A stretch of 64,000 nt of DNA from Escherichia coli (GTDB lineage Bacteria; Pseudomonadota; Gammaproteobacteria; Enterobacterales; Enterobacteriaceae), in the NCBI RefSeq assembly GCF_003334405.1, contig NZ_QOWM01000003.1; one strand, written 5' to 3'. How positions within the stretch are numbered: the first letter of the stretch is position 1; each line of letters starts with the position of its first letter. The position numbers and the translations under genes were made by a program. Under the pieces are notes generated by a model. That model saw only the letters and a list, made by a program, of their open reading frames with translations. It did no database searches and was not told where the DNA came from. Shown here one piece after another: positions 327 to 431 of this stretch.

Positions 327-431
327 ATGAACGATCAAATGTTTGTCGAGACACTGATTATCACGTCATCGTTTTTTGCCATTGCTGTTGTACTGGTTTT
401 GTCCGTTCTTCTTATCGAACGGACCGGCTAG
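327..431 (+). CDS. yoaI: small 34-aa hydrophobic membrane protein YoaI
   Basis: ATG 327-329 to TAG 429-431 encodes [34 protein letters not shown] (one predicted TM helix); below the 60-aa cutoff of the ORF track; identity by recall. Confidence 0.6.

Follow-up and report, generated by a model that had tools for sequence, protein, structure and literature searches.

The short open reading frame at 327-431 on the plus strand of the window, the 64,000-nt stretch of Escherichia coli DNA analysed here, is yoaI itself, a gene that is already annotated and characterised. Taken together with published work on the K-12 protein, our analysis makes it almost certain that yoaI is a PhoB-driven gene whose product is a single-helix inner-membrane protein that binds EnvZ and stimulates EnvZ-OmpR signalling. 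The existence of the gene, its identity, the selection acting on it, its synteny and the anatomy of its promoter are established here. Translation of YoaI, its membrane localisation, the binding and activation of EnvZ and the dependence on PhoB come from the literature on the identical K-12 protein, and its membrane topology is a prediction. All features of the YoaI family that can be checked on a sequence are present: the protein matches the HMM, has the right length with one helix and carries the invariant residues, and its gene lies in the conserved order of neighbours, downstream of a Pho box. The elements of the locus, in window coordinates, are these:

1 to 157, minus strand: 5' part of yeaL, encoding a DUF441 membrane protein (so annotated by RefSeq in strains 675SK2 and SEV1, where the region is identical)
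259 to 276, plus strand: Pho box CTGTCATCAAACTGCCAT, which replaces the -35 element of the yoaI promoter
287 to 293, plus strand: putative -10 element TAACAAT, 10 nt downstream of the Pho box
316 to 320, plus strand: Shine-Dalgarno-like GGGGG, a conserved motif 6 nt upstream of the ATG
327 to 431, plus strand: yoaI coding sequence (open reading frame, NF041475, purifying selection, hydropathy, identity to WP_000999630.1)
390 to 436, no strand assigned: hairpin over the two stop codons and the last part of yoaI (folding, inverted repeat)
432 to 935, minus strand: yeaK, encoding a YbaK-family aminoacyl-tRNA deacylase-like protein and convergent with yoaI (open reading frame, annotation, synteny)

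Read from the ATG at 327-329 to the TAG at 429-431, the plus strand holds 34 codons and a stop, which encode the 34-aa YoaI. The yeaK frame (167 aa, 432-935) runs towards it on the minus strand and closes with a stop codon at 432-434, seen as TTA on the plus strand; the two genes are thus convergent, with 0 bp between their stop codons. On the other side, yeaL is divergent from yoaI, its start codon being the complement of 155-157 and lying 170 nt upstream of the yoaI ATG (RefSeq, strains 675SK2 and SEV1), and it leaves the window at the left end. The gene order annotated in these two strains is yeaL-yoaI-yeaK-dgcJ, and the whole 64-kb window is an ordinary E. coli chromosomal segment reaching from yeaL to about ydjM. 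RefSeq names the yeaK product a YbaK/prolyl-tRNA synthetase associated domain protein; against the YbaK_EbsC profile it gave a weak match, under the cut-off.

Several observations concern the surroundings of the gene. In the top-ranked E. coli genomes (675SK2, SEV1, MRSN strains and others, with 99.9-100% identity to the window), the 3' end of yeaK contains an IS1A element, about 115 nt past the yoaI stop (L001, 1900-2597; L016, 1068-1765; about window position 540), and the annotated yeaK product is altered to 176 aa; yeaK in the window lacks the insertion. Beyond yeaK, the mechanically called dgcJ frame (978-2648, minus strand) spans 556 aa from a GTG, compared with the 1491 nt (496 aa) of RefSeq DgcJ; the longer frame is merely an upstream extension of the open frame. 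Rfam models hit the window only twice, both times as the ES036 (CssrF) sRNA (51102-51144 and 58248-58290, minus strand), in the cho-nadE and chbG-katE intergenic regions. By eye these sequences are REP/BIME-like palindromes (GGCGTGAACGCCTTATCCGGCCTAC ... GTAGGCCTGATAAGCG), and the two matches probably represent repeats, not dedicated sRNA genes.

The identity of the small protein rests on several concordant comparisons. In 675SK2 and SEV1, RefSeq annotates WP_000999630.1, 'small membrane protein YoaI', to which the peptide is identical. The peptide also matches the NCBIfam equivalog NF041475 (membrane_YoaI) end to end, residues 1-34 falling on profile positions 1-34 of 34, and scores 79.8 bits (cut-off 45; E = 1.1e-22). 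Of 5426 complete E. coli genomes, 5412 contain the yeaL-yoaI-yeaK segment according to a megablast with an 851-bp query covering window positions 150-1000, and the feature under the open reading frame is annotated there as 'yoaI: small membrane protein YoaI'. A Pfam-A profile search with the peptide returned no match, even at E <= 10, while precomputed annotation assigns PF23689 to all 24 YoaI homologues, which were retrieved with the 50-aa mechanical open reading frame as query; this discrepancy suggests a difference between library versions or the effect of a filter on short sequences. A sequence search of the PDB found no relative of YoaI. The protein is built as a single hydrophobic helix (GRAVY 1.38; Kyte-Doolittle mean of 2.72 in the best 19-residue windows, residues 10-30), with the acidic residues D3 and E8 on its N-terminal side and a C-terminal tail, E31-R-T-G.

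These results bear out what the initial annotation had proposed from the letters of the DNA, namely a 34-codon frame (ATG327 to TAG431) for a single hydrophobic helix, lying tail to tail with yeaK so that TAG 429-431 abuts the yeaK stop at 432-434 with a 0-bp gap. The names yoaI and yeaK given there are likewise correct, by identity to WP_000999630.1, the NF041475 match and RefSeq annotation. Its remark that the open reading frame track had missed the gene is plausible only as an effect of the length threshold (60-aa minimum), but public annotation does have the gene. Variation within E. coli is also on record: rare YoaI alleles include a 40-aa form with an extra IAIAIA in the transmembrane helix and a 42-aa form (P0014, P0011), the latter having a tail that is frameshifted past Glu31 and continues into the yeaK antisense strand, and several truncated forms of 27-33 aa have been deposited.

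Conservation was assessed in a species scan with one genome per species, which gave 14 loci from Escherichia, Citrobacter and Enterobacter, including E. albertii, E. whittamii, Citrobacter amalonaticus, C. koseri, other Citrobacter and Enterobacter soli. The open reading frame is kept across all three genera, as the initial annotation had expected of a real gene: the position of the ATG is common to 14/14 loci, and the 34-codon frame is present in 13 of them, the remaining one having 32 codons. A YeaK homologue lies convergent with yoaI in all 14 loci, 0-21 nt past the stop: in all Escherichia nothing separates the two genes (0 nt), in Citrobacter 1-9 nt do, and in Enterobacter soli 21 nt. Residues S26, V27 and E31, all present in the window protein, are invariant both in the alignment of homologous proteins and in the 14 loci; Ser26, Val27 and Glu31 are also invariant among 57 gammaproteobacterial YoaI orthologues (PMC11429745).

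Such a short frame might in principle be a chance, untranslated opening in a yeaL-yeaK intergenic region that merely holds the promoter and 3'-end signals of its neighbours. Besides the very small size of the frame, the empty Pfam-A search fits this view, as does the failure of earlier genomic SPA tagging to detect YoaI in rich medium and under several stresses. The pattern of substitution speaks strongly against it. Among the variable alignment columns of the first 32 codons, 17/5/28 fall on codon positions 1, 2 and 3, dN/dS relative to the window is 0.03-0.31 among the related loci of the three genera (Nei-Gojobori), and the yoaI frame alone of the six stays open across the 15 compared sequences; each of the other five has stops in nearly every sequence, two of them being open in one or two sequences each. 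The NCBIfam equivalog score lies far over its cut-off. Moreover, the protein has been detected: chromosomal YoaI-SPA was seen in western blots of membrane fractions under Mg2+ limitation, the start-site signal of yoaI in Ribo-RET rose about 12-fold in low Mg2+, and YoaI-GFP, tagged on the C-terminus, the predicted cytoplasmic end, gave a signal at the cell periphery (PMC11429745). A chance frame is therefore vanishingly improbable, being already refuted by the conservation pattern together with published detection of the protein, and the Ribo-RET footprints and the western blot supply the evidence of translation that the initial annotation had asked for.

The gene being real, its product could still have another length, either 50 aa from GTG279 or 30 aa from ATG339 (Met5). 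The mechanical open reading frame list, from which yoaI is absent at the default 60-aa minimum, shows it at a 20-aa minimum as a 50-aa frame from GTG279 (279-431); some E. coli K-12 records carry a 50-aa version (P0001), and Met5 is conserved in most species. GTG279, however, falls between the Pho box (259-276) and TAACAAT (287-293), probably upstream of the transcription start, and is therefore probably not transcribed. The upstream extension is not conserved either: indels between Citrobacter and Escherichia are not multiples of three, an in-frame stop precedes the ATG by 15 nt in two Citrobacter loci (L004 and L007), and neither these two nor L009 offer an alternative in-frame start. Met5 is not a general start, because Citrobacter sp. 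NCU1 (L014) has CTG as codon 5, and from ATG339 the Shine-Dalgarno-like element would be 18 nt away. By contrast, GGGG(T/G) or GAGGT is kept 6-8 nt upstream of the ATG327 position in 14/14 related loci, which provides the ribosome-binding site that the initial annotation had proposed to look for, and the NCBIfam model, matched over 1-34, has 34 positions. On the strength of promoter position, indels, upstream stops and the CTG at codon 5, we rejected both the 50-aa and the 30-aa start, and a product of either length is very unlikely; the 34-aa protein from ATG327 is the reading that we retain.

Upstream of this start, the Pho box differs by two mismatches from the consensus CTGTCATAWAWCTGTCAY and is the sole match to it (at most 2 mismatches) on both strands of the 64 kb, with 0 matches expected by chance from 100 dinucleotide-preserving shuffles. 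In the 13-sequence upstream alignment on which its conservation rests, TGTCAT and TG(C/T)CAT do not vary among Escherichia, Citrobacter and Enterobacter, and the flanks are scrambled between genera. The putative -10 element, TATCAAT in Citrobacter, has T287, A288, A291 and A292 invariant in the same upstream alignment; its spacing from the Pho box suggests that TAACAAT serves as the -10 element, and transcription would then start near position 300. A promoter-like match on the minus strand (349 to 322) was dismissed, 1 having been found where 1.3 were expected by chance.

Published data place PhoB at this site. In K-12, the PhoB ChIP-seq motif site listed upstream of yoaI is this very 18-mer, TGTCATCAAACTGCCATT, and occupancy of yoaI by RNA polymerase and sigma-70 is PhoB-dependent (PMC10294691). 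Under phosphate limitation yoaI RNA reaches 12,266 in the wild type and 28 in the phoB deletion, a difference of about 440-fold (PMC10294691), with replicates of 11,755/12,778 and 32/23, respectively (PMC10294691, supplementary file 1). A PyoaI-YFP reporter is PhoB-dependent as well (PMC11429745).

For the function of YoaI we rely on the work of Vellappan et al. 2025, Sci Signal (PMC11429745), and two later papers take its role as an EnvZ modulator as established. The initial annotation had guessed that small hydrophobic proteins of this type often modulate sensor kinases or transporters, and had suggested a two-hybrid assay against membrane sensors; that assay exists in print and supports the guess of a sensor kinase. 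In BACTH, the YoaI-EnvZ signal was comparable to that of the MgrB-PhoQ control, and none was seen with PhoQ or PhoR (PMC11429745). Deletion of yoaI lowered the OmpR-dependent PomrB reporter 1.4-2-fold, a modest effect, and overexpression raised it more than 7-fold, only with envZ present (PMC11429745). YoaI shifts the ompC and ompF reporters reciprocally, and E31A and E31Q lose both the binding and the activation of EnvZ, membrane levels being unaffected (PMC11429745). Support for the EnvZ interaction consists of two-hybrid and reporter assays from one group (PMC11429745). Overexpression also causes a growth defect that needs neither EnvZ nor Glu31 and depends on PhoQ (PMC11429745), and therefore YoaI has at least one further target. 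The rise of YoaI protein in low Mg2+ is post-transcriptional and PhoQ-independent (PMC11429745). In our folding of the leader and early coding sequence (298-362), in which we looked for a structure occluding the ribosome-binding site, nothing unusual was found (z = +0.89). Simple occlusion is an unlikely cause of the translational induction in low Mg2+, because the leader (about 27 nt) and the early coding sequence show no unusual structure.

Combined, these elements point to the following course of events. Under phosphate limitation, phosphorylated PhoB at the Pho box (259-276) switches yoaI on, and translation begins at ATG327, guided by the conserved GGGG Shine-Dalgarno-like element. The YoaI N-terminus is predicted to be periplasmic and its short E31-R-T-G tail cytoplasmic. 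Under Mg2+ limitation, the published work on the K-12 protein shows, YoaI accumulates post-transcriptionally and independently of PhoQ. It then binds the sensor kinase EnvZ and stimulates EnvZ-OmpR signalling, with Glu31 needed for both.

The abutting stop codons raise the further question of whether the convergent layout itself matters. The hairpin at 390-436, with an inner stem formed by GTCCGTTC (401-408) and GAACGGAC (417-424), has a minimum free energy of -20.5 kcal/mol (z = -5.57) that was equalled by 0 of 200 shuffles. It is not a canonical terminator, because it has no U-tract beside it on either strand. A consensus scan of 1-1100 on the plus strand found no canonical intrinsic terminator for yoaI, and folding of 410-560 for a yoaI terminator inside yeaK gave nothing significant (z = -0.90). 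In the phosphate-limitation data, yeaK RNA stands at 389/413 in the wild type and 709/655 in the phoB deletion (log2 -0.8, q 0.0115; PMC10294691, supplementary file 1); the lower level in the wild type may reflect interference from convergent transcription or an indirect effect.

One could accordingly propose that PhoB-driven yoaI transcription reads into yeaK and lowers its expression by interference or antisense pairing, the hairpin marking or limiting the overlap. The missing terminator-like site on the plus strand, the lack of any spacer between the stops and the unusual stability of the junction hairpin would suit such a course, as would the coincidence of a roughly 440-fold rise of yoaI RNA under PhoB with a 1.7-fold lower yeaK level in the wild type (PMC10294691). 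Yet the change in yeaK is small and stands among many indirect changes of like size (PMC10294691). The hairpin, besides its want of a U-tract, carries no compensatory changes: it is kept in most Escherichia loci, where the substitutions are wobble-compatible or mildly disruptive, and it is absent in Citrobacter and Enterobacter, which nevertheless keep the tight convergent arrangement. We consider such an effect on yeaK unlikely. That the abutting layout is functional, with starvation-induced yoaI read-through acting as antisense to yeaK and dampening the deacylase-like YeaK, we regard as quite unlikely; if true, the yoaI locus would combine the roles of small-protein gene and cis-antisense regulator.

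The PhoB-driven, EnvZ-stimulating protein thus remains the account of the locus that we favour, and it is not a new one. The finding of yoaI was correct but already known, and the checks proposed for it had been carried out earlier by others: essentially all complete E. coli genomes have yoaI annotated, and papers of 2023-2025 describe its control by PhoB and its action on EnvZ. The value of the case is that of a positive control, in which a real 34-codon gene and the class of its function were recognised from sequence alone.

The closest known counterpart is K-12 yoaI (b1788), whose 34-aa product is identical in sequence to the window protein and whose neighbours (yeaL, yeaK and dgcJ) and Pho box are the same. 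The two differ by at least one base in the leader, where the 50-aa conceptual translation has A in the window and V in K-12. Searches run with YoaI showed no sequence relatedness to MzrA, MgrB or SafA, and the likeness to these proteins lies in what they do. MzrA (127 aa) is the other membrane protein known to activate EnvZ; it shares with YoaI its target and the activating direction, and in the literature it is likewise a connector under the control of another two-component system. It is, however, about four times the size of YoaI, and no relative of MzrA appeared among the YoaI homologues retrieved. MzrA is said to use its periplasmic domain, whereas for YoaI an action through the cytoplasmic Glu31 tail is proposed (PMC11429745). 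MgrB (47 aa) and SafA (65 aa) resemble YoaI in being single-pass, histidine-kinase-binding proteins induced by two-component systems, with a feedback or connector logic. By contrast, both target PhoQ and YoaI targets EnvZ, and whereas MgrB inhibits its kinase, YoaI activates.
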